From Candidatus Eiseniibacteriota bacterium (GTDB lineage Bacteria; Joyebacterota; Joyebacteria; Joyebacterales; Joyebacteraceae): a stretch of DNA of 64,000 nucleotides. Both the position numbers and the translations under genes were made by a program. Below the pieces are notes generated by a model that did not search any database, was not told where the DNA came from, and saw nothing but the letters and a program-made list of their open reading frames with translations. Shown here piece by piece: positions 3,391 to 52,018 of this stretch. How positions within the stretch are numbered: position 1 is the stretch's first letter; each line of letters opens with the position of its first letter. Where the stretch lies: positions 19,147-83,146 of the forward strand of contig JAUVLG010000002.1 in NCBI GenBank assembly GCA_030595835.1. Reading direction: 5' to 3'.

Positions 3391-3653
3391 GATACTGCCT
3401 CCGGTCCGGGTTCAGTAGAACCATATATTATAGTCTGAGGCTGGGGGGTCGGCAACGCAAAAACAGCCCGGACGACGCTCCCCCAGCCACGCCGGCACCC
3501 CCTGACAGCCCGAAAACACGCGCTGTGCAGTCTTTTCCGCTTGCCCTGCCTTGCCCGCTGATGCTAGCCTATGCGGACGCGCAAAGAGCGTGGGTACAGC
3601 GTAACAACACCTGTGTGAGGTCCGTACAGGGACGGCACTCGGAGGAGAACCGG

Positions 3654-4136
3654 ATGAGCAAGACAGTTGCAGGCGGCTTCAAACCACGTGTTCTGGTCTT
3701 CTGCTGCAACTGGTGCGCGTACGCCGGCGCAGACCTGGCAGGCGTGTCCAGACTCAAGATAACTCCACATTTCCGGGTTATCAGAACCATGTGCTCGGGC
3801 CGCGTGGATCCCGAGCTCATTCTTGAGGCCTTCGCAGAGGGCGCGGACGGGGTCATGGTCGCGGGGTGCCACCCTGGCGACTGCCACTATATGGAAGGCA
3901 ACTACAAGACCATGCGGCGCATGGCCTTCCTGAAGAAGCTCGTCTCGGACCTGGGACTCGAGCCGGACAGACTGGCGCTCGAGTGGGTGTCGGCCGGCGA
4001 GGGAAGCAGGTTCCGCGAGGTCATCAACGGGTTCGTCGAGAAGATCATCGAGCTTGGGCCCAGCCCGATCGGAAAGAGGGCCGAGGCAAGGACGGGCCTG
4101 GACGCAGTGGGCCGTGGCGAAGCAGTGGGCGGCTGA
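3654..4136 (+). CDS. MvhD/FlpD-like hydrogenase iron-sulfur (delta) subunit family protein, stand-alone
   Basis: From the internal ATG at 3654 (RBS GGAGGAG upstream): MSKTVAGGFKPRVLVFCCNWCAYAGADLAGVSRLKITPHFRVIRTMCSGRVDPELILEAFAEGADGVMVAGCHPGDCHYMEGNYK...; a characteristic MvhD Cys pattern. The upstream 43 codons of the long ORF look non-coding. Confidence 0.8.
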   Translation: MSKTVAGGFKPRVLVFCCNWCAYAGADLAGVSRLKITPHFRVIRTMCSGRVDPELILEAFAEGADGVMVAGCHPGDCHYMEGNYKTMRRMAFLKKLVSDLGLEPDRLALEWVSAGEGSRFREVINGFVEKIIELGPSPIGKRAEARTGLDAVGRGEAVGG

Positions 4137-4172
4137 CCAGTAGCCGGACGACCAAAGGAGATCGGGTAGGGC

Positions 4173-4195
4173 GGGGCCTCGCGGCCCCGTCTTCC
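4173..4195 (+). terminator. Weak intrinsic-terminator-like hairpin after the mvhD-like gene
   Basis: GGGGCC-UCGC-GGCCCC stem-loop followed by GUCUUCC; the U-tract is poor. Confidence 0.3.
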
Positions 4196-4330
4196 TACAC
4201 CACCGGACGTACGGCTCCGTGTCCGGCTGTTCATGGGGAGCACATGAGGCTCTGAAGAGCCCCCTAATCTGCGTCGTCGTTGCGTGCCCTGCCCGTTTGC
4301 CACGGGGTTCCCCTAGCCCCGGCGCTGCCG

Positions 4331-9485: not shown

Positions 9486-12400
9486 CTACTTGAGCATCAC
9501 CATCTTCCTGGTCGCGTTCCAGGTGTCCACCGACAGGCGGCAGAAGTAGACGCCGGAGGCCACGGATTCCCCGTGGTCGTTCCGTCCGTCCCAGCTGGCA
9601 ACGTGGTTGCCGGCGTGCCCCGTCTCGTCCAGCACCGTGGCGATGCGCCTGCCCGCGACGTCGTAGATGTGCATCCGCACTCTGGCTCCGTCGTTCGCCA
9701 CCGAGTATCGGATCGACGTCGACGGATTGAAGGGATTGGGCGAGTTCTGCGAGAGCCGGTTGGCTCGGCCGATTCCGACGTCATCAACGCCGGTCGTGCC
9801 TATCAGGTCAGAGCCGTCCAGTATGCGCGTGACGTACTCGAGGCGTGTGGATGGATGAGAGCCGTCGGTCATTCCGCCCAGCAGGACTGGCACCATGTAG
9901 CGGCGGCCGCCCGTAGCAGCGTCGACGTAGAGCGCGCCGCGTTCCAGCCCGGCCTGGTCGAGCCAAACGAGCTCAGTGCCCGCGTCACCGTTCGGTCCCA
10001 CCTCACCCACGAACTGATCGCTCCATCCCTGGTAGTCGTAGTCGAACGACAAATCCTGCGTCGGCTCTCCCGATTGCCCGGCCACGGACTCGACGTTTCC
10101 GTCTCCCTTGCCGAGCCCGGTGACGTACGTTGCGTGGAATCTGTTCCAGAGGTCGAGCGCCGTCGGGCTGCCGTTGATGTAGTAGGAGCCGCCGAACATC
10201 GGCTCCTCGACGTAGACGTCACCGCCGGCGTCAAGAAAGCTCGTGAGCGCGGCCGCCTCGTCGTCGGTCATCTGCACGTTGGCGCCCGGTTCTCCGAAGT
10301 TGACGACGCCACCGAGGTAGATGATGAGTTCGAAGGGGGAGAGGTCGGCGGGGAGCGTCTCGGAGACGGAGTACAGCTCACCGACCGACTCGAGGGCCTC
10401 GATCCACGGTATCTCGCTGCCGTCGGCCGTGGTGTAATCGTCCCCGATCCCGTCGAACGGCTTATCGCCGTCATCGGCATCCCACAACAGGATGCTGGAG
10501 TTCACGCTGGCAGCGATCGGCCCCTTGGACCACACTTCCGTCCGCTCGTTACCCGAGAGGTCGACGGCGGTGAGCGCGTAGTAGTAGTGCTGCTTGTTCT
10601 CCGCAGTGACGTCGGTCCAGTCTGTCATGGCCGCGTCCAGCAGGTCCGTTGCTATGGGCGTCATCTCGGTGACATCCGAGAAGCGCTCGGTGTCGCGGTA
10701 GACCCGGTAGTGCGCGAAGTCGGACGGAGGTGCGTAGCCCGCCCAGTCCAGAAGGATGGCTCCACCTACGTCGAACGGATCGGCGGGTATCAGGTTATCG
10801 ACGGCCGCCGGGGCGTCTGTGTCCGGGGGCTGGTCGACGATGGACATGCTGCCCTCGTAGGGAAGGATGCCCTGGCCAGTGACCACGATCGTCATCGTTC
10901 CCTCGACGGTCGGCGCCGGAGACAACGTCGCCACGCCGTCGGGTCCGGTCGTCGCGACGACCGACAGCTCGCTGCAGGACAGGAACACGGTGGCGCCGTC
11001 GATCGCCTCGCCGTCTCGCGACACGGCCACGAGCAGCTCGTGCTCACCCAACGGTATCTCGCCGGCGTGCGCGACAGTGGACGTAACCGGATTCCTGGTC
11101 CATATGCGAGTCTCGGGATCGCCGAGCAGGTTGAGTTCGTAGAGAGTGTAGCGCGTGTAGCGTTCGGATCTCGCCAGTTCGACGAACGCGTCCTTGTGGG
11201 CCGCGTGGGCGACTCCCGCGTGCTCCAGTCCCTCGTTGAAGAGCTTGCTGAAGAACTCCCTGTCGAACTCGTCGCCGGTTCCATTGCCGGGGTTGCCGGG
11301 CGAGCCCCATCCATACCGGCTGTTGCCGACGTAGGCTATCCCGCCGCCGCCCGGTGAGTTGAGCCAGTGTTCCGCTATGCAGTCCCTGTCTATTGCCGCG
11401 GACCAGCAGCCCATTGAGTAGAACAGGCCGTAGCGGGGAGCGTTGGTCAGACCGTCGAAGTCCGAGCGGTAGAGCGCTCCGCTTCCGATGCACAGGACCG
11501 TCGTGTTGGCGTGACCGTTGTGGTTGATGATGTTGTAGCCGGTGTTCATCGCGGCGACGGCGCTCGAACGCGACAGGTTACCGCTCGTCTCATAGAGCTT
11601 CGTGATGGGATCGTATAGCTCCGGCACCGACTCGTCGTCGATCATGTTCTTGCAGATGGCGTGATCGGTCCAGGGGTTGGTCCAGAGAACCTCGGCCATG
11701 AAGAGTATATTCTCCAGATAGTCCGTCGGCAGCGGGTCGCCTCCCGGCGCTCCCTCGTAGGTCAGGACCTTGTTGACGAAGCGCGCGGCCTCGGTCGTGT
11801 TGTCGACCGGAGCGCGCCCGACGAACACGTCGGCATACATATCGATCTCGTCGAGCGAGATCTGGCCATACGTGCCGTTGCCGTTCGCGTCCCACGTGCC
11901 ATCGAGGTCGCCGTAGTACAGGTCGCAGCGGATCTGGTCTTCGTCCGGTGCGCCGCCGACGCCGGATGTCATTGCGTAGACCGTGCGGGCCGGGACGACG
12001 CCGGTGTCGCCTCCAAGAAGCACCCACATCGTGCCTTTGTTCTCGTAGTAGTCGATGATGCAGTTCCGGATCTGGTCCTGCTCGTCGACACCCGTGTAGT
12101 TGGAGTAGATCCACGTCGTGGTCACTACCTCGGTCGTCAGCCCCTTCTGCGCCTTCCAGTCAGCCAGTGTCTGGAATGTCGATTCGTAAGCGGAAGGAGC
12201 GATGATCAGGTAGTCGACCTCGCCGCGGCCGGCTCTGGGACCTGCCGATCGATCGATCACGTCTTCCGGATTGACGACGAGCGAGCGCGAACGCTCCGCG
12301 GCGGCGCTGGCCGACCTTGCGGAGAGCGGACCCGGGACCCGGGCCGTATTCGGCGCGAACTCGATCTTGAGAGATATCTCAGTGGTCTCATTGACGTAAA

Positions 12401-14838: not shown

Positions 14839-16056
14839 TTGCACAAAGACACCGTGGTCATAGTCCTGGCAGGAGGCAAGGGAGAGCGTCTCTGGCCTCT
14901 CACGCGGGACCGGGCCAAGCCCGCCGTGCCCTTCGGTGGCATCTATAGGATCGTCGACTTCAGCCTTTCCAACGCCATGAACTCGGGTCTCAGGCGGATC
15001 TTCGTCCTCACACAGTACAAGTCCATCTCGCTGACCAGACACCTTCGGCGCGGATGGGATCACCTGAGCTATGCCCTCGGGGAGTTCATCGAGAACGTGC
15101 CCGCGCAGCAGCGGCTCGGCGAGGTCTGGTACAGGGGGACCGCTGATGCCATCTGGCAGAACGTCTACCTCCTGGACCAGCTGAAGCCCAAGCCACGCTA
15201 CGTCTTGGTGCTCTCGGGAGATCACGTTTATCAGATGGACTACAACGGTCTCCTCGCGTACCACGCGGCCTCGGGTGGCAGCGCGACCGTGTGCGCACAG
15301 GAGAGGCCCGTAGAGGAGGCCTCCGAGTTCGGTGTGCTTCAGGTGGACGACGCATTCCGCGTCCGCGGCTTCCAGGAGAAGCCCGAGCGGCCCGACACCA
15401 TTCCTGGGAAGCCCGACCGCGTGCTGGCCTCCATGGGGGTCTACGTCTTCAACACCGATTTCATGATAGAGCGTCTGAGCGAGGCCGCTGAGCGAGGCAT
15501 GTTTGACTTCGGGCACGACCTTCTGCCCGAGATGACAGAGAGGGAAGACGACCTTCGGGCGTATGTCTTCGGTGAGAACGGAGCGCGGGGTTACTGGCGA
15601 GACGTCGGCACCATTGATGCGTATTGGGCGGCCAACATGGACCTCGTGAGTCCGATTCCTGAGCTCAATCTCTATGACAGGGAATGGCCGATCCACACAT
15701 ACCAGGGTAGGTTCCCGCCCGCCAAGTTCCTCCACGACGGTGCCCAGGAGGGCGACAGGATGGGCGTCGCGGTCGACTCGATAGTATCGACCGGCTGCAT
15801 CATCTCCGGCGGCCGGATCCACAGGTGCGTGCTCTCCCCGCGAGTGCGGACGAACAGCTACAGCTATGCGTTCGAGTCCATTCTGATGGAGGACGTCGAC
15901 GTCGGACGGTACGTCAAGCTCCGCCGCGTCATTGTGGACAAGGGCGTGCAGATCCCCCCCAGGACCCAGATCGGGTACGATCCCGAGGAAGACGCGCGGC
16001 GATTCACGATCACGAACAGTGGCGTGGTCGTCGTGCCCAAGGGGTTCACTTTCTAG
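14839..16056 (+). CDS. glgC: Glucose-1-phosphate adenylyltransferase
   Basis: 405 aa; VIVLAGGKGERLWPLTRDRAKPAVPFGGIYRIVDFSLSNAMNSGLRRIFVLTQYKS... is the canonical ADP-glucose pyrophosphorylase N-terminus, and the C-terminus has the left-handed beta-helix. Confidence 0.9.
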   Translation: MHKDTVVIVLAGGKGERLWPLTRDRAKPAVPFGGIYRIVDFSLSNAMNSGLRRIFVLTQYKSISLTRHLRRGWDHLSYALGEFIENVPAQQRLGEVWYRGTADAIWQNVYLLDQLKPKPRYVLVLSGDHVYQMDYNGLLAYHAASGGSATVCAQERPVEEASEFGVLQVDDAFRVRGFQEKPERPDTIPGKPDRVLASMGVYVFNTDFMIERLSEAAERGMFDFGHDLLPEMTEREDDLRAYVFGENGARGYWRDVGTIDAYWAANMDLVSPIPELNLYDREWPIHTYQGRFPPAKFLHDGAQEGDRMGVAVDSIVSTGCIISGGRIHRCVLSPRVRTNSYSYAFESILMEDVDVGRYVKLRRVIVDKGVQIPPRTQIGYDPEEDARRFTITNSGVVVVPKGFTF

Positions 16057-42324: not shown

Positions 42325-42572
42325 GATGTGGGTGCTCCCCGTCGAACGCGTTTCCAGGATCCGTGGAACCCACGGCGCGTTTGAGAGAATGACGTTGAAG
42401 GACCGCAGCGTTTCCCGCTAGAATGAGCCCGGAGCAGGGATCCCTCACACGTCCGGGAACCCGAGGCGCCACGACCAGACAGAATACCATTCGCTGCCCG
42501 GTCCGGGCAACCCGAATCGCGAGCGACCATTCGCCGCACGTGTCTGACCGAACTCAGTTGGCGTCGGGAGAG

Positions 42573-43418
42573 ATGCTGGACTCAGCTCCGGCGGACCCGA
42601 TCCGGAGCCTGGCGGAGGAGATGATGACCGTACCGACAGTACTGACCATCGCCGGTTCCGACTCGTCAGGGGGCGCCGGGATCCAGGCCGACCTCAAGAC
42701 GATGTCAGCCTTCGGTGTCTTTGGGACGACCGCCCTGACGGCGGTTACCGCACAGAACACCCTGGGCGTGACAGAGAGCCTGTTTCTCTCCGCCGAACTC
42801 GTGGCTCGTCAGATAGACGCCGTGGTGGAGGATGTGGGGGTCGATGCAGCCAAGACAGGTATGCTCGGGACCGCCCTTGTCATTGAGATCGTGGCGGAGA
42901 GAGTCGGCCGGCACCGGATCCCGAACCTCGTGGTCGACCCTGTGATGGTGGCGACGTCCGGCGCTTCTCTGATGGAGGACGATTGCCTGGGTGCGCTCCG
43001 GACGGCCTTGATACCGCGGGCGTATATCGTGACGCCGAACGTCCCCGAGGCGGAAGTTCTCTCCGGCGTCAGCATCGTCTCGCTGGAGACCATGGAGGAA
43101 GCGGCCCGGGCCGTACACGGGCTCGGTGCGGCCAACGTACTGGTGAAGGCCGGGCACATCGAGGGCAGCGCCACCGATGTGCTCTTCGATGGAGAGAACA
43201 TCACCCGCTTCTCGGCCGAGCGGATAGAGGGCGGTAGCATCCACGGGACCGGGTGCACGCTGTCGGCGGCCATTGCGTCAGGACTGGCGCTGGGTCTTGA
43301 ACTCACTGATGCCATAGCTGGAGCCAAGTCGTTTGTGACGCGGGGCATAGCGGCAGCGCTCGACATGGGTAGCGGCAGCGCGTTCGTCAATCACTTCGTG
43401 TCGGTGGACGAGGGCTGA
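42573..43418 (+). CDS. thiD: Hydroxymethylpyrimidine / phosphomethylpyrimidine kinase
   Basis: [44 protein letters not shown]..., ...KTGMLG..., ...[17 protein letters not shown] are canonical ThiD motifs. Start placed at ATG 42573 (RBS GGGAGAG); the upstream 50 codons of the track ORF look non-coding. Confidence 0.85.
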
Positions 43419-43479
43419 GTCAGATTCGGGCATGACTTCGAAGGCGTGGCACAGGCGCCAGGGCGAATGGAGGACGGCA

Positions 43480-44397
43480 GTGAAGCACGTGTTCGGACCG
43501 GTACCATCGCGAAGACTCGGGTTCTCACTCGGCGTGGATCCGGTCATCCCAAAGACATGCACGCTCGACTGTGTCTACTGCGAGCTTGGTCCCACGACGG
43601 ACAGGACCGTCACGCGGCAGCTGTACGTTCCCATCGACGGGATACTGGAGGAACTGGGAGCCAGACTGGCCGAGAACCCGGACCTCGATTTCATCACGTT
43701 GTCCGGGTCGGGTGAGCCCACGCTCAACTCCGGTCTGGGCAGGCTAATCGACGGTATCAAGGATATGACGGATGTCCCGGTGGCCGTTCTCACCAACGGG
43801 ACACTGCTCACCGATCCGGACGTGCGGGCCGCGCTCGCCCGTGCCGACGTTGTGGCCCCTTCGCTGGACGCGGTCTCCCGCGACGCCTTCGAGAAGGTCA
43901 ACCGTCCGCACGAGTCGCTCGATCCGGGCGTAATTGCCGATGCCCTCGTCACTTTCGCCCGCGAGTACCGCGGGAAGATTTGGCTTGAGGTCCTGTTTGT
44001 CGAGGGGCTGAACGACAGTTCCGACGAGGTTGAGCGTATCGCCGGAATTATCGACGCCGTCAAACCGGACAAGGTCCACGTGAACACGGTCGTGCGACCC
44101 CCGGCGGCGCCACACTCACGCGCGCTCAGTCAGGAACGTCTGGAAGAGATAGCGGAACGCTTCGGTCCGAACGCTGTGGTAATCGCGAGTGCGACCGGGC
44201 CGTCGCAGCCGAAGTCCGAGCGCGATGCCTCCGATGTCATCGTCGCGATGGCCGCGCGCAGACCGGTCACTGCCATCGATGTTGCCAGATCCGTCGGCGT
44301 CAGTCAGGCCGCTGCCGCGAAGCGGCTGAACGCGTTGGTCGAAAGAGGAGTCTTATCAGTTGTGCGGCACGGCGAAAGACTGTATTATAAGCAGTGA
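43480..44397 (+). CDS. Radical SAM protein with C-terminal winged-helix (MarR-like) domain
   Basis: GTG start with GGAGGA 5 nt upstream: VKHVFGPVPSRRLGFSLGVDPVIPKTCTLDCVYCELG (CxxxCxxC at the N-terminus), ...LSGSGEPTL...; C-terminal wHTH (RRPVTAIDVARSVGVSQAAAAKRLNALVERGVLSVVRHGERLYY). Confidence 0.75.
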   Translation: MKHVFGPVPSRRLGFSLGVDPVIPKTCTLDCVYCELGPTTDRTVTRQLYVPIDGILEELGARLAENPDLDFITLSGSGEPTLNSGLGRLIDGIKDMTDVPVAVLTNGTLLTDPDVRAALARADVVAPSLDAVSRDAFEKVNRPHESLDPGVIADALVTFAREYRGKIWLEVLFVEGLNDSSDEVERIAGIIDAVKPDKVHVNTVVRPPAAPHSRALSQERLEEIAERFGPNAVVIASATGPSQPKSERDASDVIVAMAARRPVTAIDVARSVGVSQAAAAKRLNALVERGVLSVVRHGERLYYKQ

Positions 44398-44408
44398 CCT
44401 GAGAGGGG

Positions 44409-45131
44409 GTGTCAGTGAAGCATGCGATCAAGGGATTCGACCAGATGTCCCTCGTGGATTGGGACGGCATGGTCGCCTCGACACTCTACACCTCTGGCTG
44501 CAATTTCCGTTGTCCGTACTGTCACAACTCCGGTTTGGTTCTGTTCCCGGATCAGTACGAGTCAATACCCGTCGATGAGATTCTTGATTACGTGAGGGAG
44601 CACAACGATTTCATCGACGGCGTCGTCATCACTGGCGGCGAGCCCTGCATCCACAGCAACATCGGGGTCTTGATCAAGCAGCTGCGAGAGGTGGGAGTAG
44701 CAGTGAAGCTCGACACGAACGGTTCCTTTCCGGATCTGCTCGAGTCGCTGATAGACAAGGAACTGGTCGACTACGTGGCGATGGACGTCAAGGCGCCGCT
44801 CGACTTCGATGCGTACTCGAAGAGCGCCGGGATCACCGATCGCCGCACGTTCGAGAAGGTGCGAGACAGCATCGACCTCCTGATGGAAGGGAGGGTCGAC
44901 TACGAATTCCGAATGACCGTCGTGCCCGCACTGCATCGCGCAAGCGATCTCCAGCGGGTCGCGGAGCAGATCAGGGGCGCGAGCCGTTTCATTCTTCAGA
45001 ACTACGTGCCGCGTGACACGCTGGATCCTGCTTTTCTCAACGAGACACCATACAACGCGGAGCGGCTTGAGGAGTTCAAGAAGATGATGGCGCCGATGTT
45101 CGGCGAGTGTCTGATTCGCGGGGAGAGCTAG
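44409..45131 (+). CDS. Radical SAM protein, anaerobic ribonucleotide reductase activase (NrdG)-like family
   Basis: 240 aa; TSGCNFRCPYCHNSGLV (CxxxCxxC), VVITGGEPC; 11-nt gap after the preceding radical SAM gene. Confidence 0.8.
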   Translation: MSVKHAIKGFDQMSLVDWDGMVASTLYTSGCNFRCPYCHNSGLVLFPDQYESIPVDEILDYVREHNDFIDGVVITGGEPCIHSNIGVLIKQLREVGVAVKLDTNGSFPDLLESLIDKELVDYVAMDVKAPLDFDAYSKSAGITDRRTFEKVRDSIDLLMEGRVDYEFRMTVVPALHRASDLQRVAEQIRGASRFILQNYVPRDTLDPAFLNETPYNAERLEEFKKMMAPMFGECLIRGES

Positions 45132-45177: not shown

Positions 45178-45897
45178 CTACTTCTTGCGATTGTGGGTAT
45201 TGAGCTTCCGGATGGACGAGCGGCGAGGCCTCGATAGGAGGACTCGCCGTTTGTGCATTCTCTCGTGCACGGCGCGAACACTGGTCGCGCCGCCCTCACC
45301 GTCGTCTTCCCTCAGCACGGCTCTCCCGAACAGCAGCGGAACCGCGTAGACGGACGCCACGACAAGCGGTACGTGTATCCACCCTTCAGAGAGAAGACCG
45401 TTGACACCGATGACGAGTCCGACTGCGGCAAGCGACCCGTGGAGGGGACGGCTCGTCGCCGGTGCGATGGAGTTCAGTGTCGCGAGCGCGAGGAGAAGGG
45501 TAGGAGGCAGCGTCACGCCGAGAGGGGAGAAGACGAAGCTTGGTAGCTCGCCTGAGTACCCCGGATACAGCAGAGCGAAAAGCCCCAGGATACCCATCAC
45601 TGCGAGTCGAAGTCGGGGCGTGCGGCGGAATGAGAGGACGTTCTTCGGGTGCGCTGCCTCGAGACACCAGAGCGCGGACAGTCCGGTGGTGAACGCTGCC
45701 ACAATGCGTGCGGACGGGTGGCCGGCGAGCGCCACCGCCGCGGTGGCGAAGGCAAGAGCGAAGTACACGGCGACCGTCCTCTCCATCGACGTGCGTCTGA
45801 TCCAGAACAGGACCGCGACGACGGCGACGGCGAAGTGGTGCAGCGCTGCCACAAGGAGGAAGCTCTCGGCGACGGCCAGCTGCGTTTCCGGTGACAT
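45178..45897 (-). CDS. Hypothetical polytopic membrane protein (last gene of TPP-riboswitch operon)
   Basis: 239 aa, about 6 predicted TM segments (FLLVAALHHFAVAVVAVLFWI; VAVYFALAFATAAVALAG; LAVMGILGLFALLY; ...). It follows the PurM-like gene by 35 nt. Confidence 0.5.
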   Translation of the reverse strand: MSPETQLAVAESFLLVAALHHFAVAVVAVLFWIRRTSMERTVAVYFALAFATAAVALAGHPSARIVAAFTTGLSALWCLEAAHPKNVLSFRRTPRLRLAVMGILGLFALLYPGYSGELPSFVFSPLGVTLPPTLLLALATLNSIAPATSRPLHGSLAAVGLVIGVNGLLSEGWIHVPLVVASVYAVPLLFGRAVLREDDGEGGATSVRAVHERMHKRRVLLSRPRRSSIRKLNTHNRKK

Positions 45898-45932
45898 GTC
45901 TCAGTGCCCTCCGTTCGACCACGGTGCCGTAG

Positions 45933-46988
45933 CTACCTCGCGGACTGCTTCGCGAGGTACTCTTCGAACTTGCCCCAGAACGGATCGATCTCGGGGTGCT
46001 CGAGAGGATGCCGCCCGTCCTCGTCGATGACGACGACACCCGCGTCGGGCTCGGTGAGTTCTCCCACGACGGACGCGGGTATCCCCTTTCCATCAAGGGC
46101 CGCCAGGATGTCCTCGGCCCGGTCGGGCTTCACCGTAGCCACGAGAGTCCCCTCACTGATGCTCTTGTAGGGGTCGATGTCGAAGACCTCACAGGTCTTC
46201 ATGACGGCGTCCTGTGTTACGATGCTGCACTTCTCGACCACGAGCCCCTTCCCGGACGCTCGCGCTATCTCGAACAACGCGCCCCAGATCCCGCACTCCG
46301 TGGCGTCGTGCATGGCGGTTACGCCGCCCACGCCCGCGCAGATGGCGGCGTCCTCGATGACGGACATCTGGTAGAAGACGCTCTGAGCCTGCTCGGTCGT
46401 GGTCTCGCCGAAGCGCTCGGTTATGAACTCGGGGAATTGGACCGACATCAACCCGGTCGTCTCGACCGCCGGCCCCTTCGTGATGATGATCCTGTCGCCC
46501 ACCTCTGCCTTGCGAGGATCGATCAGGTCGTCGCTCGCGCCGACCCCGATGACCGTCGCCCCACCGACCATTGGGAAGTTGCATCCCGCGTACCTGGCCG
46601 TGTGCCCGGTGACAATGGCGATTCCCAGGCGTTCCGCCTCCTCGTGCACCGTCTGCCAGATGGTGACGAGCGCCTGCTCCTCCAACTCGGGCGGGAGGTT
46701 GAGATCGACGGCGAGAAACCGAGGTGGGATCCCACTGACGGCGACGTCACTCGCGACAATGTGCAGCGCGAACCACGCCGCGCGCTCCCAGCCTAGCGAG
46801 GGAGCGATGAAGAACGGGTCGGTCGACAGGACCACGGTCCGGTCGCCTATGGTGATGGCCCCGAAGTCGACGCCGTGGGTTGGCCCCACAACGACCGAGT
46901 CGTCGCGCGCCCCGAGGCGCGGGAAGATCACTTCGTCGAAGAACTGTGGTGTTGCCTTGCCCAGTGTTGGAAGTCTTTCCTGCGGCAT
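45933..46988 (-). CDS. AIR-synthase-related (PurM superfamily) protein, HypE-like
   Basis: Start at ATG with GGGAGGA upstream (MPQERLPTLGKATPQFFDEVIFPRLG...). PurM-fold motifs ...VVLSTDPFFIAPSLGWERAAWFALHIVASDVAVSGIPPRFLAVDLNLP... (HypE-like) and C-terminal ...AMHDATECGIWGALFEIA.... The upstream 98 codons of the track ORF are Arg-rich junk. Confidence 0.75.
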   Translation of the reverse strand: MPQERLPTLGKATPQFFDEVIFPRLGARDDSVVVGPTHGVDFGAITIGDRTVVLSTDPFFIAPSLGWERAAWFALHIVASDVAVSGIPPRFLAVDLNLPPELEEQALVTIWQTVHEEAERLGIAIVTGHTARYAGCNFPMVGGATVIGVGASDDLIDPRKAEVGDRIIITKGPAVETTGLMSVQFPEFITERFGETTTEQAQSVFYQMSVIEDAAICAGVGGVTAMHDATECGIWGALFEIARASGKGLVVEKCSIVTQDAVMKTCEVFDIDPYKSISEGTLVATVKPDRAEDILAALDGKGIPASVVGELTEPDAGVVVIDEDGRHPLEHPEIDPFWGKFEEYLAKQSAR

Positions 46989-47083
46989 GCGTCCTCCCTG
47001 CAACGGTGTTGTCTTTCGTTCCCTTGTCGTCACACTCGGGGCACGCGGTCGCGTCGGTAGCCCGCTGCGGTTTCGTCCCGTGT

Positions 47084-47626
47084 TCAGCCGCGTCCGCTCT
47101 CCTCTATGTAGGTGCGGACGATCCTCCTGTGATCCGCGAACGCTATCGGCTGCGGCAGGTCGTCCATGTCGAAGAACGCCGCCTCGGCCGCGTCGTCGCC
47201 CGCGGCGAGTTCTCCGCCAACCACCCTGGCAGTGAACGCAATACTGATGACGGGTGTCCTGGGGTCTTCGTCCGTCGCCCATGTGTCGTAGATGCCGGTG
47301 ATCTCGACGTCGAGCCCGGTCTCTTCCTTCGTCTCTCTTGCCGCGCTCGCGTCCGGCTGTTCACCGGCCTCCAGGAAACCCGCCGGCAGGCACCACTTTC
47401 CCTTGCCGGGCTCGTACTTGCGCAGTACGAACAGGAGCTTCCCGTCCCGCTCGGCCAGCACGCACGTCACCGCCGCCGGCGCCATGTAGAAGATGTAGGA
47501 GCAGCTCGTGCAGACCATACGCCGGTGACCGCGGCTCTCTCGCTCCTCGAGCCGGGCCGCGCACCTCGGGCAGAACTTCAGCCCCTCGTAGTTCGCCTGC
47601 GCGTCTATGTCATATGTGTCGTCCAT
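47084..47626 (-). CDS. NUDIX hydrolase with N-terminal zinc-ribbon
   Basis: Start MDDTYDID (GGGAGGAAG RBS); zinc ribbon CPRCAARL...CTSCSYIF; Nudix box GKWCLPAGFLEAGEQPDASAARETKEETGLDVEI. Confidence 0.8.
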   Translation of the reverse strand: MDDTYDIDAQANYEGLKFCPRCAARLEERESRGHRRMVCTSCSYIFYMAPAAVTCVLAERDGKLLFVLRKYEPGKGKWCLPAGFLEAGEQPDASAARETKEETGLDVEITGIYDTWATDEDPRTPVISIAFTARVVGGELAAGDDAAEAAFFDMDDLPQPIAFADHRRIVRTYIEESGRG

Positions 47627-48302
47627 CTTCCTCCCGGCGTCCCGTCCGGTCAACGGGACCGCTCTCCAATGCGATCTGGAAATCATCGATGGCGTCTAAG
47701 GGATCGTCCGCGTGGCACACGGCCGATATCACAGCGACGTAGTGCGCACCCGCCCTGAGGACGTCCGTCGATGTGGACTTGCTTATGCCTCCTATGGCTA
47801 CCCTCGTCAGTTCGGGAACGCGCCCGGCTACGGACCTGAGTCCGTCCAGACCGATGGGCGCAAGTGCGTCGGGCTTCGTGTCGGTTGGGAACACGGGACC
47901 GACGCCTATGTAGTCGGCGCCGGCAATTCGCGCCTCCTCCGCTTCGTCCGGCGTCCTCGTCGACAGCCCTATGACGGCCGAAGGTCCCAGGAGCTCCCTG
48001 GCGCTTTTTATGCCTGCGTCGGTTCTTCCGAGGTGCACTCCGTCGGCGCCCGCGGCGGCGGCGACGTCCGGCCTGTCGTTGACGATGAAGAGGGTGTCCG
48101 TGCCTCTCGTGACGTCCGCTATCTCACGCGCGAGTCTCAGGAGCTCGTCGTCGGGGAGGTTCTTCTCACGCAACTGTATTGCGGGCACACTGCGCTCGCA
48201 CGCACCGGCCGCGAGCTCGACGTGCGGAATTACCGGGGAGGTGAGAACCAGGTACAATCCGCCTCCGCCGAGGAGACGTTCTTTCGAACTGACAGTGCTC
48301 AC
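47610..48302 (-). CDS. thiE: Thiamine-phosphate synthase
   Basis: 230 aa; ...LYLVLTSPV...IQLREKNLPDDELLRLAREIADVTRGTDTLFIVNDRPDVAAAAGADGVHLGRTD...IGLSTRTPDEAEEARIAGADYIGVGPVFPTDTK... is the TMP-TENI fold signature. Confidence 0.85.
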   Translation of the reverse strand: MSTVSSKERLLGGGGLYLVLTSPVIPHVELAAGACERSVPAIQLREKNLPDDELLRLAREIADVTRGTDTLFIVNDRPDVAAAAGADGVHLGRTDAGIKSARELLGPSAVIGLSTRTPDEAEEARIAGADYIGVGPVFPTDTKPDALAPIGLDGLRSVAGRVPELTRVAIGGISKSTSTDVLRAGAHYVAVISAVCHADDPLDAIDDFQIALESGPVDRTGRREEDGRHI

Positions 48303-48409
48303 GGTATCCCTCCGTACACTCTCCGGAACCGGGCTGCGCGGGTGCGGGTGCGTCCGTTCCCAGGCGCGTCCGCGGGCTCGCGCCCGACCGGTTTCGGTGC
48401 GTGGACCGA

Positions 48410-49246
48410 TCAGCGTGCGGTCGCCTCGGCGGCGTGCTCGAGCTCTCCCTCGGCTGGGTGGGGCGCCTCGCCGTCCAGATCGCGCAGAATCAGCTGGGCG
48501 ACCTTTCTTCCTGAGAGGAACATGCCTCCGAATATCGGGCCCATCCGCGGTGCGCCGTGAACGGCGCCGGCCGCCATGCCAGCCACGTAGAGGCCGGGGT
48601 ACACCTCACCGGTGTGCTCGATCACGGCTCGCTCTCCGCTGTCCGCGCACATCGAGCGCTCACCCATGACACCTCCGGTCTCCGTCCTCAGGGTCACGCC
48701 TTCCTTGCGCACGGTGACGCGGGTCACATCCGCGTCATGTCCTGTCGCGTCCAGGACTACTCGAGCCGAGAACGAGAGGGGGTCGACGTGCAGTCCGGCG
48801 GCGTCGACGGCGCTCCACAGTACGACGACTCCCGCCACCCTGCCACCGTTGAACATCACGTCTTCGACTCGGCAGCCGTTGAGGACGAGAAGTCCCTCGC
48901 GGGTCGCGCCGTACGCGAGGGCCGCGGCCGTGTGCACTGAGTCGGCGGTGTGGAAGCCGTCACTGTAGGGCCTGTGTCTGATGCCGAAGTCGTCGAGCAC
49001 CTCGAGCGCTTCGTCCTGCACCACGATCTCGTTGAACATCATGCCGCCGCCCCAGATGCCGCCGCCGGTCGAGAGCTTGCTCTCGAAGAGTGCGACCTTC
49101 CTTCCCGCGCGCGCGAGGTACCCTCCGGCAACCAGCCCGGCCGGCCCCGCGCCCACGATGGCCACGTCCAGCTCAGTTGCCTCGCTCAGCTTCTCGAAGA
49201 ACCTCTCGGTGATCGCACGTGTGACCATGACGTCGCTGATCATCAC
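48410..49246 (-). CDS. thi4: Thi4-family thiazole synthase
   Basis: 278 aa; DVAIVGAGPAGLVAGGYLARAGRKVALFESKLSTGGGIWGGGMMFNEIVV..., ...HTAAAL..., ...GMAAGAVHGAPRMGPIFGGMFLSG are Thi4/THI1 signatures. It is the first gene after the TPP riboswitch. Confidence 0.85.
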   Translation of the reverse strand: MMISDVMVTRAITERFFEKLSEATELDVAIVGAGPAGLVAGGYLARAGRKVALFESKLSTGGGIWGGGMMFNEIVVQDEALEVLDDFGIRHRPYSDGFHTADSVHTAAALAYGATREGLLVLNGCRVEDVMFNGGRVAGVVVLWSAVDAAGLHVDPLSFSARVVLDATGHDADVTRVTVRKEGVTLRTETGGVMGERSMCADSGERAVIEHTGEVYPGLYVAGMAAGAVHGAPRMGPIFGGMFLSGRKVAQLILRDLDGEAPHPAEGELEHAAEATAR

Positions 49247-49261
49247 ATCCTCCTCCGAACG

Positions 49262-49299
49262 AAAAAGGGACCCCTCGTGGTGTCGTCATGAGGAGTCCC
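49262..49299 (-). terminator. Rho-independent terminator forming the expression platform of the TPP riboswitch
   Basis: Minus-strand RNA GGGACUCCUC-AUGACGACACCAC-GAGGGGUCCC followed by UUUUUCG; it lies between the aptamer and the RBS GGAGGAGGA. Confidence 0.5.
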
Positions 49300-49317
49300 G
49301 CGCGGTCACGCGCTTCA

Positions 49318-49410
49318 AGGGCCGTTTCCCTACGCTGGCATTGCCCAGTTCAGGTTCACGGGGTATCATTCTCAGACCCTGGCGGGCCACCCCCAACGAC
49401 TCCTATGTTA
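49318..49410 (-). ncRNA. TPP (THI-box) riboswitch
   Basis: Reverse complement of 49321-49400 reads GUCGUUGGGGGUGGCCCGCCAGGGUCUGAGAAUGAUACCCCGUGAACCUGAACUGGGCAAUGCCAGCGUAGGGAAACGGC, containing the conserved GGGGUG, CUGAGA, ACCC, CCUGA and GCCAGCGUAGGGAA elements of the TPP aptamer, upstream of thi4. Confidence 0.85.
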
Positions 49411-49524: not shown

Positions 49525-50916
49525 GTGAAGCTCACTGCCTACGGCGCTGCGCGCAATGTCACGGGTTCCAAGCATCTGCTCGAGGTGGCCGGGAAGCGCA
49601 TTCTGCTCGATTGCGGCCTCTATCAGGGGCGCCGGGCCGAGAGCGAGCGGCGCAACAGGCAGCTTCCGTTCGATCCCGCCTCCATAGATGCGGTTCTGCT
49701 TTCGCACGCTCACATTGACCACAGCGGCAGTCTGCCCACTCTGGTTAAGCAGGGCTTCCGCGGGTCCATCTACGCAACGCACGCGACCGCGGACCTGTGC
49801 GAGATACTCCTCAGAGACACGGCGTACATTCAGAGCCACGATCTGGAGTACCTGAACAAGAGACGAAGGAAGAGGGGAGAGGTCCCGCTCGAGCCCATCT
49901 ACACCATGGACGATGTCGAGGATGTACTGCCGCGATTCGTGGGCGTCGACTACGATAGTCCGATTCGAGTCACGCAGGATCTTACGGTCACGTACCGCGA
50001 CGCGGGACACATCCTCGGTTCAGCGATCCTCGAGATCGACGCGCGCGAGTCCGGCAGGCGCACGAGGATCGTTTTCACCGGTGACCTCGGCAGGGCGGAC
50101 ATGCCCATCCTGAAAGACCCGTACGAGGTGAGGAGCGCGGACGTTCTCATAACCGAGAGCACGTACGGCGGTCGCTCTCACAACCAGGTGCAGCACGTCG
50201 AAGAGAACCTCGCGTCGTTCGTGTCCGACGTCGCTCGCCGCAAGGGGAAGATCATCATCCCCTCGTTTGCCGTCGGCAGGACGCAGCGCGTTGTCTACGG
50301 ACTGCACAAGCTCATGCGGGACGGACTCGTAAGAGAGATGCCCATCTTCGTCGACAGTCCGCTCGCGATCTCCGCGACCGAGATTTTCCGCAGGCACCCC
50401 GAGTGCTTCGACGAGGAAATGAACGCACTGCTCCGGCGCGACGATGACCCCTTCGGCTTCTCGCGCGTTCGGTACGTCAAGAAGGCGGCCGAGTCGAAGA
50501 AGCTCAACCGCATGAGCGGACCGATGGTGATTATCTCGGCCTCCGGGATGTGTGAGGCGGGGCGCATTCTGCACCATCTCAAGAACAACATCGGGAACCG
50601 CCGGAACGGCGTGCTGATAGTCGGCTATCAGGCGCGTCACACCCTTGGCAGGCGCATCTCGGAAGGGGAGAAGAGGGTCAAGATCTTCGGCAAGCCCTAC
50701 CTCGTGAGGGCCCGCGTCAGGGTGTTTGATGAGTTCAGCGCCCACGCCGACAGCGGCGAGTTGCTGGCCTTTGCCGAGGGGATCCGGCGCCCGCCCAGGG
50801 CGACGATCGTAGTTCACGGCAACGAGGAACAGTCGCTGGCCTTCGGGCGCCGCCTGACCGAGCGGGGATTCCCGAGAGTGACCGTTCCCTTCGACGGTGA
50901 GACCATCACCCTGTGA
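49525..50916 (+). CDS. MBL-fold / beta-CASP RNA-metabolising metallo-hydrolase (RNase J / CPSF73-like)
   Basis: 463 aa, GTG start after AAGGGGA. Motif 1 D (LLDCG), HxHxDH (LLSHAHIDHSGSL), ...ITESTYGGRSH..., beta-CASP and C-terminal RMMBL (FSAHADSGELLAF). Confidence 0.85.
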   Translation: MKLTAYGAARNVTGSKHLLEVAGKRILLDCGLYQGRRAESERRNRQLPFDPASIDAVLLSHAHIDHSGSLPTLVKQGFRGSIYATHATADLCEILLRDTAYIQSHDLEYLNKRRRKRGEVPLEPIYTMDDVEDVLPRFVGVDYDSPIRVTQDLTVTYRDAGHILGSAILEIDARESGRRTRIVFTGDLGRADMPILKDPYEVRSADVLITESTYGGRSHNQVQHVEENLASFVSDVARRKGKIIIPSFAVGRTQRVVYGLHKLMRDGLVREMPIFVDSPLAISATEIFRRHPECFDEEMNALLRRDDDPFGFSRVRYVKKAAESKKLNRMSGPMVIISASGMCEAGRILHHLKNNIGNRRNGVLIVGYQARHTLGRRISEGEKRVKIFGKPYLVRARVRVFDEFSAHADSGELLAFAEGIRRPPRATIVVHGNEEQSLAFGRRLTERGFPRVTVPFDGETITL

Positions 50917-51475: not shown

Positions 51476-51793
51476 ATGGCAGTGAAGAAGAAGCCCGCCA
51501 AGAAGAAGGCGGCCGCGAAGAGGAAGCCGGCAAAGAAGAAGGTCGTGAAGAAGAAGACGACCGCGAAGAGGAAGCCGGCGAAGAAGAAGGTCGTGAAGAA
51601 GAAGACGACCGCGAAGAGGAAGCCGGCGAAGAAGAAGGTCGCGAAGAAGAAGACGACCGCGAAGAGGAAGCCGGCTAAGAAGAAGGTCGTGAAGAAGAAG
51701 ACGACCGCGAAGAGGAAGCCGGCGAAGAAGAAGGTCGTGAAAAAGAAGACGGCCAAGAGGAAGCCGGCCAAGAGGAAGACCAAGAAGAGGTAA
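51476..51793 (+). CDS. Lysine-rich histone H1-like nucleoid-associated repeat protein
   Basis: 105 aa; RBS GGAGGTGA; five near-perfect 16-aa repeats KKKTTAKRKPAKKKVV encoded by 48-bp tandem repeats. Confidence 0.75.
   Translation: MAVKKKPAKKKAAAKRKPAKKKVVKKKTTAKRKPAKKKVVKKKTTAKRKPAKKKVAKKKTTAKRKPAKKKVVKKKTTAKRKPAKKKVVKKKTAKRKPAKRKTKKR
51530..51770 (+). repeat. Five tandem 48-bp coding repeats inside the histone-like gene
   Basis: aagaagaaggtcgtgaagaagaagacgaccgcgaagaggaagccggcg repeated with only 1-2 substitutions per unit. Confidence 0.85.
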
Positions 51794-51845: not shown

Positions 51846-51920
51846 CTTCCATGTGGTAGCGCCAACGGGAATCGAACCCGTGTTACCGGCTTGAGAGGCC
51901 GGCGTCCTAACCGCTGGACG
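51846..51920 (-). tRNA. tRNA-Glu (anticodon CUC), CCA encoded
   Basis: rc: GGCGCCAUCGUCCAGCGGUUAGGACGCCGGCCUCUCAAGCCGGUAACACGGGUUCGAUUCCCGUUGGCGCUACCA; cloverleaf with anticodon loop CUCUCAA. Confidence 0.85.
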
Positions 51921-51929
51921 ATGGCGCCT

Positions 51930-52003
51930 TCACTTTGTGGTTGGGGAGGGAGGATTCGAACCCCCGCCGGCGGATCCAGAGTCCGCTGTCCTACCACTAG
52001 ACG
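51930..52003 (-). tRNA. tRNA-Gln (anticodon CUG), CCA encoded
   Basis: rc: UGGGGAGUCGUCUAGUGGUAGGACAGCGGACUCUGGAUCCGCCGGCGGGGGUUCGAAUCCUCCCUCCCCAACCA; anticodon loop CUCUGGA. Confidence 0.85.
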
Positions 52004-52018
52004 ACTCCCCAGATCGTC

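Follow-up and report, generated by a model that had tools for sequence, protein, structure and literature searches.

The described proteins that come closest in sequence and fold to the one considered here are HypE, SelD (selenide, water dikinase), and the thiamine-monophosphate (TMP) kinase ThiL, which is itself a member of the PurM superfamily. HypE is the carbamoyl dehydratase of [NiFe]-hydrogenase maturation, and its chemistry is defined by the cysteine of its C-terminal PR(I/V)C motif, to which the carbamoyl or cyano group is attached. In genomic context and proposed function, the closest described protein is the hydroxyethylthiazole kinase ThiM (PF02110), which has a ribokinase-like fold, occurs in classical thiM-thiD-thiE operons and is known to form fusions with the thiamine-phosphate synthase ThiE. 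The same synthase step can be carried out by ThiN, an alternative thiamine-phosphate synthase. Here we describe a PurM-superfamily protein (hereafter PurM-like), the gene of which lies in an operon controlled by a thiamine pyrophosphate (TPP) riboswitch in a 64-kb stretch of a Candidatus Eisenbacteria genome; this whole stretch is called the window, and its coordinates are used throughout. The PurM-like family is very probably a thiamine-pathway enzyme that has gone undescribed so far. The comparative-genomic evidence for its thiamine function is strong, and we put the probability that the family acts, as a predicted ATP-binding enzyme, at the thiamine-phosphate-synthase node of the pathway at roughly 0.9. 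As for the reaction itself, the supply of thiazole phosphate to ThiE or ThiN is the reading that we favour, at about even odds.

The riboswitch-controlled operon

The locus is a TPP-riboswitch-controlled operon with the gene order thi4-thiE-nudix-PurM-like-membrane. As a thiamine operon under riboswitch control, it is of an ordinary type. The aptamer (THI element) lies at 49310-49404 on the minus strand, where the Rfam covariance model RF00059 matched over its full length (model positions 1-105) with 63.6 bits (gathering score 54.3, E 3.7e-10). The conserved cores that define membership, CUGAGA and ACCUGA...GCGUAGGGA, are both present, and our own covariance model, R1, gave 97.9 bits for the same element. 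The reading and folding of the sequence placed the expression platform at 49258-49299 on the minus strand. It consists of an intrinsic-terminator-like hairpin with a GC-rich stem of 10 bp, in which 49299-49290 pairs with 49276-49267, followed by UUUUUCGUU reaching to 49258; the fold has an energy of -28.8 kcal/mol (z = -2.0). On the 3' side of UUUUUCGUU come the Shine-Dalgarno sequence GGAGGAGG and then the start of thi4. With the hairpin and the U-tract placed between the aptamer and thi4, the riboswitch probably acts by terminating transcription, and its control of the genes would depend on the ligand. A scan with a terminator consensus missed this hairpin because of its 13-nt loop, and it found no minus-strand terminator-like site within the operon.

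All five genes are on the minus strand. They are thi4 (48410-49246), thiE (47610-48302), a zinc-ribbon Nudix hydrolase gene (47084-47626; PF14803 and PF00293), the PurM-like gene (45933-46988; AIRS and AIRS_C domains), and a membrane-protein gene (45178-45897; no Pfam or NCBIfam match). The 17-nt overlap between thiE and the Nudix gene and the following gaps of 95 nt and 35 nt, as reported in an earlier note on this DNA, proved to be exact; to these we add a gap of 107 nt between thi4 and thiE, which is absent from that note. Both enzymes encoded at the head of the operon exceed the equivalog cutoffs, Thi4 with 304.5 bits for TIGR00292 (cutoff 148.3) and 249.8 bits for PF01946, and ThiE with 179.3 bits for TIGR00693 (cutoff 145.1) and 185.6 bits for PF02581. 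The only cysteines of Thi4 are at positions 125 and 200, and none is found up to 25 residues past the GHD motif, relative to which the active-site residue was placed by reference to the yeast sequence. The Thi4 of the window is apparently of the non-Cys, sulfide-dependent, catalytic type.

The closest relatives of all five genes are from Candidatus Eisenbacteria metagenome-assembled genomes (MAGs). The gene order is kept in approximately 16-20 Eisenbacteria or related MAG loci, with 68-95% identity of the PurM-like protein and 42-77% identity of the membrane protein, and the riboswitch was found in 16 of them. The flanks of these loci are conserved as well, with a beta-CASP RNase gene in divergent orientation at one end and a thiD/radical-SAM/NrdG-like operon converging from the other. 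In what follows, L-numbers denote individual loci and P-numbers individual proteins; the 170 loci that were compared amount to 1.94 Mb, with a flank of approximately 10 kb on each side of the gene. In L024 and L029, thi4 is gone from the operon and the riboswitch lies immediately 5' of thiE-nudix-PurM-like-membrane.

It could be argued that the Nudix, PurM-like, and membrane genes are hitch-hikers without a thiamine role and that transcription effectively stops after thiE. The co-transcription of the five genes is predicted, Nudix relatives of 40-50% identity are found in folate, sigma-factor, or signalling contexts, and the membrane protein is without informative relatives. We regard this explanation as hardly credible, given the overlap of thiE with the Nudix gene and the lack of an internal terminator-like site. 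Moreover, the order is kept where the Nudix and membrane genes have diverged to 42-57% identity, including the two loci in which the riboswitch directly precedes thiE-nudix-PurM-like-membrane, and for the PurM-like gene the explanation is contradicted by the family-wide evidence given below.

The PurM-like protein and its relatives

Homologs of the PurM-like protein fall into a narrow clade of 56-95% identity, which holds the window protein, and a broad family with the same motifs. The narrow clade was found in Eisenbacteria, Omnitrophota, Planctomycetes-labelled MAGs, and Calditrichota, in Nealsonbacteria, Paceibacterota, and Gottesmanbacteria of the candidate phyla radiation (CPR), and, among archaea, in Hydrothermarchaeota, Aenigmatarchaeota, and Woesearchaeota. 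The broad family comprises 760 clusters (50% identity) at E <= 1e-30 in a HMMER search of 1.84 billion representative proteins, and the family as a whole ranges over Eisenbacteria, Omnitrophota, CPR, DPANN, other archaea, and high-GC bacteria. Its members are annotated just as "AIR synthase family protein" or are misannotated as HypE.

The scores of the PurM-like protein stayed below all three relevant NCBIfam cutoffs, namely those of HypE (TIGR02124, 101.5 bits, cutoff 251.6), ThiL (TIGR01379, 75.4 bits, cutoff 184.15), and SelD (TIGR00476, 57 bits, cutoff 125). A profile of 15 family members, compared with the sequences of the PDB, matched HypE at 6e-24, SelD at 2e-8, PurM at 4e-6, and ThiL at 1.8e-5 or worse. 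Thus, the view of the earlier note that the protein is HypE-like and not ThiL-like was borne out in both comparisons (101.5 versus 75.4 bits; 6e-24 versus approximately 2e-5). The AlphaFold (AF2) model of the protein, which has a pLDDT (predicted local distance difference test) of 89, was compared with known structures using Foldseek. It matched HypE with an E-value of 2.5e-21, a template-modelling (TM) score of 0.67-0.70, and 22-26% identity, ThiL with 5e-19 and a TM score of 0.63-0.65, and SelD with 8e-19. As HypE, ThiL, and SelD all match at TM scores of 0.6-0.7, the fold alone cannot decide the function of the PurM-like protein.

The motifs were examined in an alignment with HypE, SelD, ThiL, and PurM of E. 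coli. The Asp residues of the superfamily are present in the PurM-like protein (D41, D57, D81, and D228) and are common to it and HypE, as are a motif of the D-x-T-x-G-G type and the first part of the C-terminal tail. The sequence GHTARY occupies the site of GDT in HypE and ThiL and of GHS in SelD, and HDATECG stands at the site of RDATRGG in HypE and DLSDGL in ThiL. The C-terminus of the family has an invariant HPxxDPFWxxFEEYL, whereas HypE ends in ...EPLPRIC; the window protein itself ends in ...FEEYLAKQSAR. The family can accordingly be recognized by the motifs GH(T)xxY and HD(A)TE(C/G)G and by the C-terminal DPFW helix. As the PR(I/V)C end is lacking, the PurM-like protein is without the cysteine that defines HypE chemistry, and a cysteine occurs among the last six residues in only 1 of 116 members of the narrow clade and 3 of 114 members of the broad family. 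In a 15-sequence alignment of the narrow clade, two cysteines, C136 and C266, are invariant, and a third, C232, is nearly so; C232 is replaced by Gly in the broad family.

Judged by its sequence, the PurM-like protein belongs to a HypE-derived clade of the PurM superfamily and is an ortholog of neither HypE nor ThiL. The earlier note had proposed the alignment of 45933-46988 with ThiL, HypE, SelD, and PurM as the means of classifying the gene product, and a clear ThiL ortholog was not what it revealed. HypE remains the closest protein by sequence and fold; it differs in its substrate-carrying cysteine, in having GDT instead of GHT, and in its context, since the PurM-like genes stand in thiamine contexts without hypA-D (tblastn with E. 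coli HypA, HypB, HypC, and HypD gave no match in the 170 loci). With ThiL, the protein shares the superfamily, the fold, and the pathway, and ATP-dependent phosphotransfer is plausible in both. However, it lacks the D-L-S-D-G-L motif, it is encoded alongside a canonical ThiL in one cluster, and its genes are commonly under riboswitch control and next to, or fused with, that of the TMP synthase. The likeness to SelD lies in the GH(S/T) motif, with His where HypE and ThiL have Asp, and in an N-terminal Lys that aligns near Lys20 of SelD. Unlike SelD, the PurM-like protein has no Cys or Sec in the N-terminal glycine-rich loop (its N-terminus reads LP-x-LGK) and no selenium context. SelD splits the ADP anhydride to AMP, which is the chemistry that would be needed for processing ADP-thiazole.

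Genomic contexts of the PurM-like family

The earlier note had called for a comparison of the genes under THI-box control in related lineages. This comparison found TPP riboswitches before genes of the PurM-like family in many lineages. Outside Eisenbacteria, a TPP riboswitch lies upstream on the same strand in approximately 26 loci. It is immediately 5' of the PurM-like gene in L064 (61.1 bits), L062 (54.0 bits), and L084 (50.1 bits), and in L060 it is followed by thiE-PurM-like-thi4. L064 (4311-5757) has two such elements, the one scoring 61.1 bits (Rfam) before the PurM-like gene and another of 24.9 bits (R1) before thi4, so that each of the two genes appears to have a riboswitch of its own.

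A set of 80 metagenome loci of the broad family showed riboswitches as well as an association with the TMP synthase. In 19 of the 80, R1 detected a riboswitch upstream of the gene and on its strand; ThiN was adjacent in 28 and ThiE in 20. When only the well-flanked loci were considered (n = 45, at least 700 nt on both sides of the gene), 30 of them had thiE or thiN on the same strand at a distance of no more than 250 nt. In L052, thiE overlaps the start of the PurM-like gene, and in L032, the PurM-like gene directly follows thiC (629 bits). A riboswitch suggested in L032 by a regular-expression match was not confirmed by Rfam.

Three proteins, P0325, P0345, and P0362, are fusions of the PurM-like protein with ThiN (PF10120), and both domain orders occur among them. 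P0325 was found on three contigs from three samples, and a TPP riboswitch scoring 63.7 bits stands before the gene of P0362 (in L098). In the same L098, an FMN riboswitch (15879-16023, minus strand, 100 bits) stands before a ribDEBAH-type operon 6 kb from the fusion gene. Two other apparent fusions were set aside. P0073 covers only the first third of ThiE, which could be due to a frameshift or an assembly artefact, and it was counted as an adjacency only. The PfkB part of P0432 matches a gene that lies nearby in high-GC contigs and encodes a pseudouridine-kinase-like protein, and this fusion is probably a frameshift artefact. In such contigs (L170, 7394-9177), the genes downstream of thiE-PurM-like encode a PfkB kinase and a pseudouridine-5'-phosphate-glycosidase-like protein.

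The ThiN fusions raised the possibility that the PurM-like protein is an analogue of ThiD, that is, a hydroxymethylpyrimidine (HMP) phosphate kinase delivering HMP pyrophosphate (HMP-PP) to ThiE or ThiN. They parallel the known fusions of ThiD with ThiN, and the conversion of a phosphate to a diphosphate is a reaction of the ThiL type. L094 contains thiC, thiL, and thiN with no thiD or thiazole synthase within 6 kb, and in L032, as mentioned, thiC directly precedes the PurM-like gene. This explanation was dropped as highly improbable, since at least five lineages encode a bona fide ThiD within the operon or cluster of the PurM-like gene, namely Eisenbacteria, L130, L143, L137 (an adjacent ThiD-ThiN), and L162.

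The contexts also bear on the idea of the earlier note that the protein is a ThiL analogue or catalyzes a new ATP-dependent step. A non-orthologous TMP kinase converting the TMP made by ThiE or ThiN to TPP ranks second among the readings, although we consider it unlikely. ThiL gives a precedent in the PurM superfamily for phosphoryl transfer onto a phosphate, on a fold that resembles that of the PurM-like protein (the Foldseek match given above), and adjacency to or fusion with the TMP synthase would suit two consecutive steps. The Eisenbacteria cluster has thi4, thiE, and thiD but not thiL. A search for a second PurM-superfamily open reading frame (ORF) that could be a canonical thiL (family hidden Markov model, maximum sensitivity, six-frame ORFs) found none in the window, which is uninformative for the whole genome. 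The stand-alone copies in the small genomes of CPR, DPANN, and Omnitrophota would likewise fit a final-step enzyme. On the other side stands the cluster in L094 (3798-7566), which is also found in L096. There, a canonical ThiL (TIGR01379, 194.6 bits, cutoff 184.15) is encoded in a thiL-thiC operon divergent from the PurM-like-ThiN fusion; within the flanks of approximately 10 kb, a canonical ThiL was seen in these two clusters and in no other locus. Frequent control by TPP riboswitches and positions like that of thiM are atypical of thiL, and the family has HD-A-T-E-G in place of the D-L-S-D-G-L of ThiL. In addition, the riboswitch-PurM-like-thiD-thiE operon of L143 is closed by a gene of a HAD-family phosphatase (3613-4290), which is the kind of enzyme that acts in the route to TPP via a TMP phosphatase and a pyrophosphokinase, as Hasnain et al. 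2016 reportedly described. Hence the first half of the idea is weakened by the ThiL encoded beside the fusion and by the thiM- or thiazole-branch-like associations, and the second half is kept as a rival.

This second half is that the PurM-like protein catalyzes a new ATP-dependent step, for example the activation or relay of sulfur for Thi4, or a reaction in the manner of PurM or HypE that repairs or cyclodehydrates a damaged intermediate of thiamine or thiazole. In the closest relatives of the protein, HypE, PurM, and PurL, an amide oxygen is activated so that dehydration or cyclization can follow, and the conserved cysteines C136, C266, and C232 of the narrow clade would suit such chemistry. 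Genes of sulfur metabolism (nifS, larE-like, mnmA- or ttuA-like, cysK, HcyBio-like) recur next to the PurM-like genes, and the protein coexists with ThiD, ThiL, ThiC, Thi4, and ThiE or ThiN, so that there is no known step for which an enzyme is clearly lacking in all contexts. We judge a new step of this kind improbable, because the tightest and most frequent partner of the family is the TMP synthase rather than Thi4 or the sulfur genes, C232 is Gly in the broad family, and no specific substrate can be named.

Together with bioB, the recurrent neighbours just listed make up the set reported around Thi4 genes (PMC13325395). The loci L041-L081 of Omnitrophota and related MAGs (e.g., L055, 8042-12050) share a conserved synteny in the order nifS, a gene of a larE-like PP-loop ATPase, the PurM-like gene, birA, and a gene of a TonB-dependent receptor; mnmA and nadA follow at some distance downstream. 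Two of these loci, L075 and L078, also have a thi4 under riboswitch control, located 8.5-9.5 kb upstream.

A thiamine role of the PurM-like protein, which the earlier note had deduced from one operon, is therefore backed by riboswitches, adjacency to thiE or thiN, and ThiN fusions in many lineages. Among the papers searched, none connects TPP riboswitches or ThiN with proteins that are HypE-like or AIR-synthase-like.

Which reaction the PurM-like protein may catalyze

We favour the supply of thiazole phosphate to ThiE or ThiN because of the thiM-like operons of L143 and L130, the lack of ThiM, and the presence of Thi4 as the sole thiazole synthase along with the Thi4-type neighbours. The operons of L143 and L130 resemble the classical thiM-thiD-thiE operons, except that the PurM-like gene stands where thiM would be; that of L130 has the order riboswitch-PurM-like-thiE-thiD-tenA, with the TenA end at 10564-11280. 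No ThiG, ThiS, or ThiH was seen in the 170 loci, and tblastn with ThiM of E. coli gave zero matches in them even at E <= 0.1. That the PurM-like gene takes thiM-like positions and is nowhere in these loci co-located with ThiM was found with ThiM of E. coli as the only query and without other thiE operons as a control.

The reaction could be one of two. The PurM-like protein may phosphorylate salvaged hydroxyethyl- or carboxy-thiazole (HET/cHET) as a non-orthologous replacement of ThiM, which is possible but doubtful. The likeness to ThiM is one of context and proposed function and comprises the control by TPP riboswitches, the operons with thiD, thiE, and tenA, the fusion with or adjacency to the TMP synthase, and the fact that the two never occur together in the 170 loci; the fold, ribokinase-like in ThiM and PurM-type here, sets them apart. 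Alternatively, the protein might turn ADP-thiazole, the product of Thi4, into thiazole phosphate by cleaving the ADP anhydride on the PurM fold in the manner of SelD. This option is prompted by the SelD-like GH motif and by the cleavage of ADP to AMP by SelD, and we consider it rather unlikely. The same modest weight is given to the broader proposal that the family is the long-sought prokaryotic enzyme converting ADP-thiazole to the thiazole phosphate that feeds ThiE or ThiN, or carries out some other new ATP-dependent step of the Thi4 branch. A role in ADP-thiazole processing would explain the fusion with ThiN, the Thi4-type neighbourhoods, and the lack of ThiG, ThiS, ThiH, and ThiM alongside.

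Several points weigh against the supply of thiazole phosphate. No enzyme of the PurM superfamily is known to phosphorylate an alcohol, and the frequency at which thiM is expected in thiE operons is general background rather than the result of a control. In the narrow clade outside Eisenbacteria, thiE is adjacent in just 2 of 49 well-flanked loci, and many members stand in the nifS-larE-like-PurM-like-birA synteny without a riboswitch. The members from CPR and DPANN stand alone, for which a final-step kinase is a better fit. The transfer of function from the broad family to the narrow clade, at 35-45% identity, is an assumption, and the evidence was drawn from flanks of approximately 10 kb rather than from the presence of ThiM, ThiL, Thi4, and ThiG in whole genomes. 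Finally, the operon of the window already has a Nudix gene, which would make a role of the PurM-like protein in ADP-thiazole processing partly redundant here, and L024 and L029 retain both genes in an operon that has no thi4.

The Nudix hydrolase and the membrane protein

The Nudix protein matched PF00293 with 81.5 bits and PF14803 with 28.8 bits. Its Nudix box, GFLEAGEQPDASAARETKEETGL, is intact and conforms to the pattern GX5EX7REUXEEXGU, and two CxxC pairs are present; homologs of 180 aa support the start chosen for 47084-47626. The best NCBIfam model was of the NudC type (NF001299), with 47.9 bits, far below its cutoff of 158. NudC shares the zinc ribbon and the Nudix box with the window protein and cleaves ADP-linked dinucleotides (NAD(H)), and ADP-thiazole derives from NAD. 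However, the NudC signature SQPWPFPxS is not in the sequence of the window protein, and a thiamine context was seen in Eisenbacteria only. Orthologs with at least 57% identity are apparently confined to Eisenbacteria-type contigs, as judged from the few that have a source name. Four relatives from other bacteria (P0253, P0273, P0293, and P0282, 43-49% identity) have no thiamine genes nearby and are surrounded instead by folate, sigma-factor, or signalling genes. Since such relatives are not linked with thiamine, the thiamine link of the Nudix gene consists of its 17-nt overlap with thiE and its conservation in one lineage.

A thiamin damage-control Nudix, which Goyer et al. 2013 reportedly described, resembles the window protein by description only. 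The activity on HMP-PP or damaged thiamine that the earlier note had proposed may still apply to the window protein, and the hydrolysis of ADP-thiazole is better motivated. In pathway schemes, the conversion of ADP-thiazole to thiazole phosphate is ascribed to a Nudix hydrolase not yet identified (PMC4215014, PMC5853225), and a precedent for Nudix genes clustering with thiamine genes is cited in the latter. We tentatively regard the Nudix protein as a candidate ADP-thiazole diphosphatase, at somewhat less than even odds; as such, it would hydrolyze ADP-thiazole to AMP and carboxythiazole phosphate.

The membrane protein had been credited with six transmembrane helices; hydropathy and the AF2 model (pLDDT 81.7) instead predict seven hydrophobic helices. 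It has a basic C-terminal tail and a conserved HH pair, W32, R35, Y45, YPG, N142, and H153. We found 64 homologs, and all of those with a source name are of the Eisenbacteria type. A Pfam scan of the homologs revealed no matching family, only scattered weak matches (e.g., DUF6064 in one member), and the model gave no significant fold match in the PDB. By its position in the operon, the protein might import a thiamine precursor, which we consider a doubtful assignment. Thus, from the thiamine roles that the earlier note had extended to all three genes by their riboswitch membership, that of the PurM-like gene stands on family-wide evidence and that of the Nudix gene on operon evidence from one lineage only.

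Neighbouring genes of the window

The gene of the HMP/HMP-P kinase ThiD is located at 42621-43418 on the plus strand (TIGR00097, 310 bits, cutoff 205). Its longest ORF starts at 42423, and the start at 42621 was chosen from the beginning of the domain. On the same strand, thiD is followed, within 42423-45131, by the genes of a radical-SAM protein with a C-terminal winged helix (43432-44397) and of an NrdG2-type radical-SAM activase (44409-45131). This operon is convergent with the thi4 operon, and the two are conserved together in approximately 17 Eisenbacteria loci. No TPP riboswitch was detected upstream of the thiD operon by the Rfam and R1 scans, and there is no thiC within the window.

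Divergent from the riboswitch, a beta-CASP/MBL ribonuclease gene is found at 49525-50916 (plus strand), and its position is conserved in the Eisenbacteria loci. The best NCBIfam model for its product was that of type VII CRISPR Cas14, which gave 420 bits and thus fell well short of the cutoff of 800; the score for aCPSF1 was 310 bits. Further along the plus strand, 51476-51793 encodes a lysine-rich protein of 105 aa built of AKKKPAKKKVVKKKTT-type repeats, which looks histone-H1-like. Two tRNA genes (51857-52011, minus strand) adjoin it on the other strand.

Implications for thiamine biosynthesis

Thiamine biosynthesis is seen as almost fully mapped. In its genomic associations, the PurM-like family, with at least 760 clusters (50% identity), bears the marks of a core thiamine enzyme. 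The PurM-like protein may close a known gap, either in the processing of ADP-thiazole or as a non-orthologous ThiM or ThiL. If this is true, the chemistry of the PurM superfamily gains a new reaction type. For crop engineering, a defined partner would aid the transfer of catalytic, non-suicidal Thi4 pathways, which need complete downstream chemistry. The assignment of the reaction would also fix the predictions of vitamin B1 auxotrophy and the metabolic reconstructions for many uncultured lineages.

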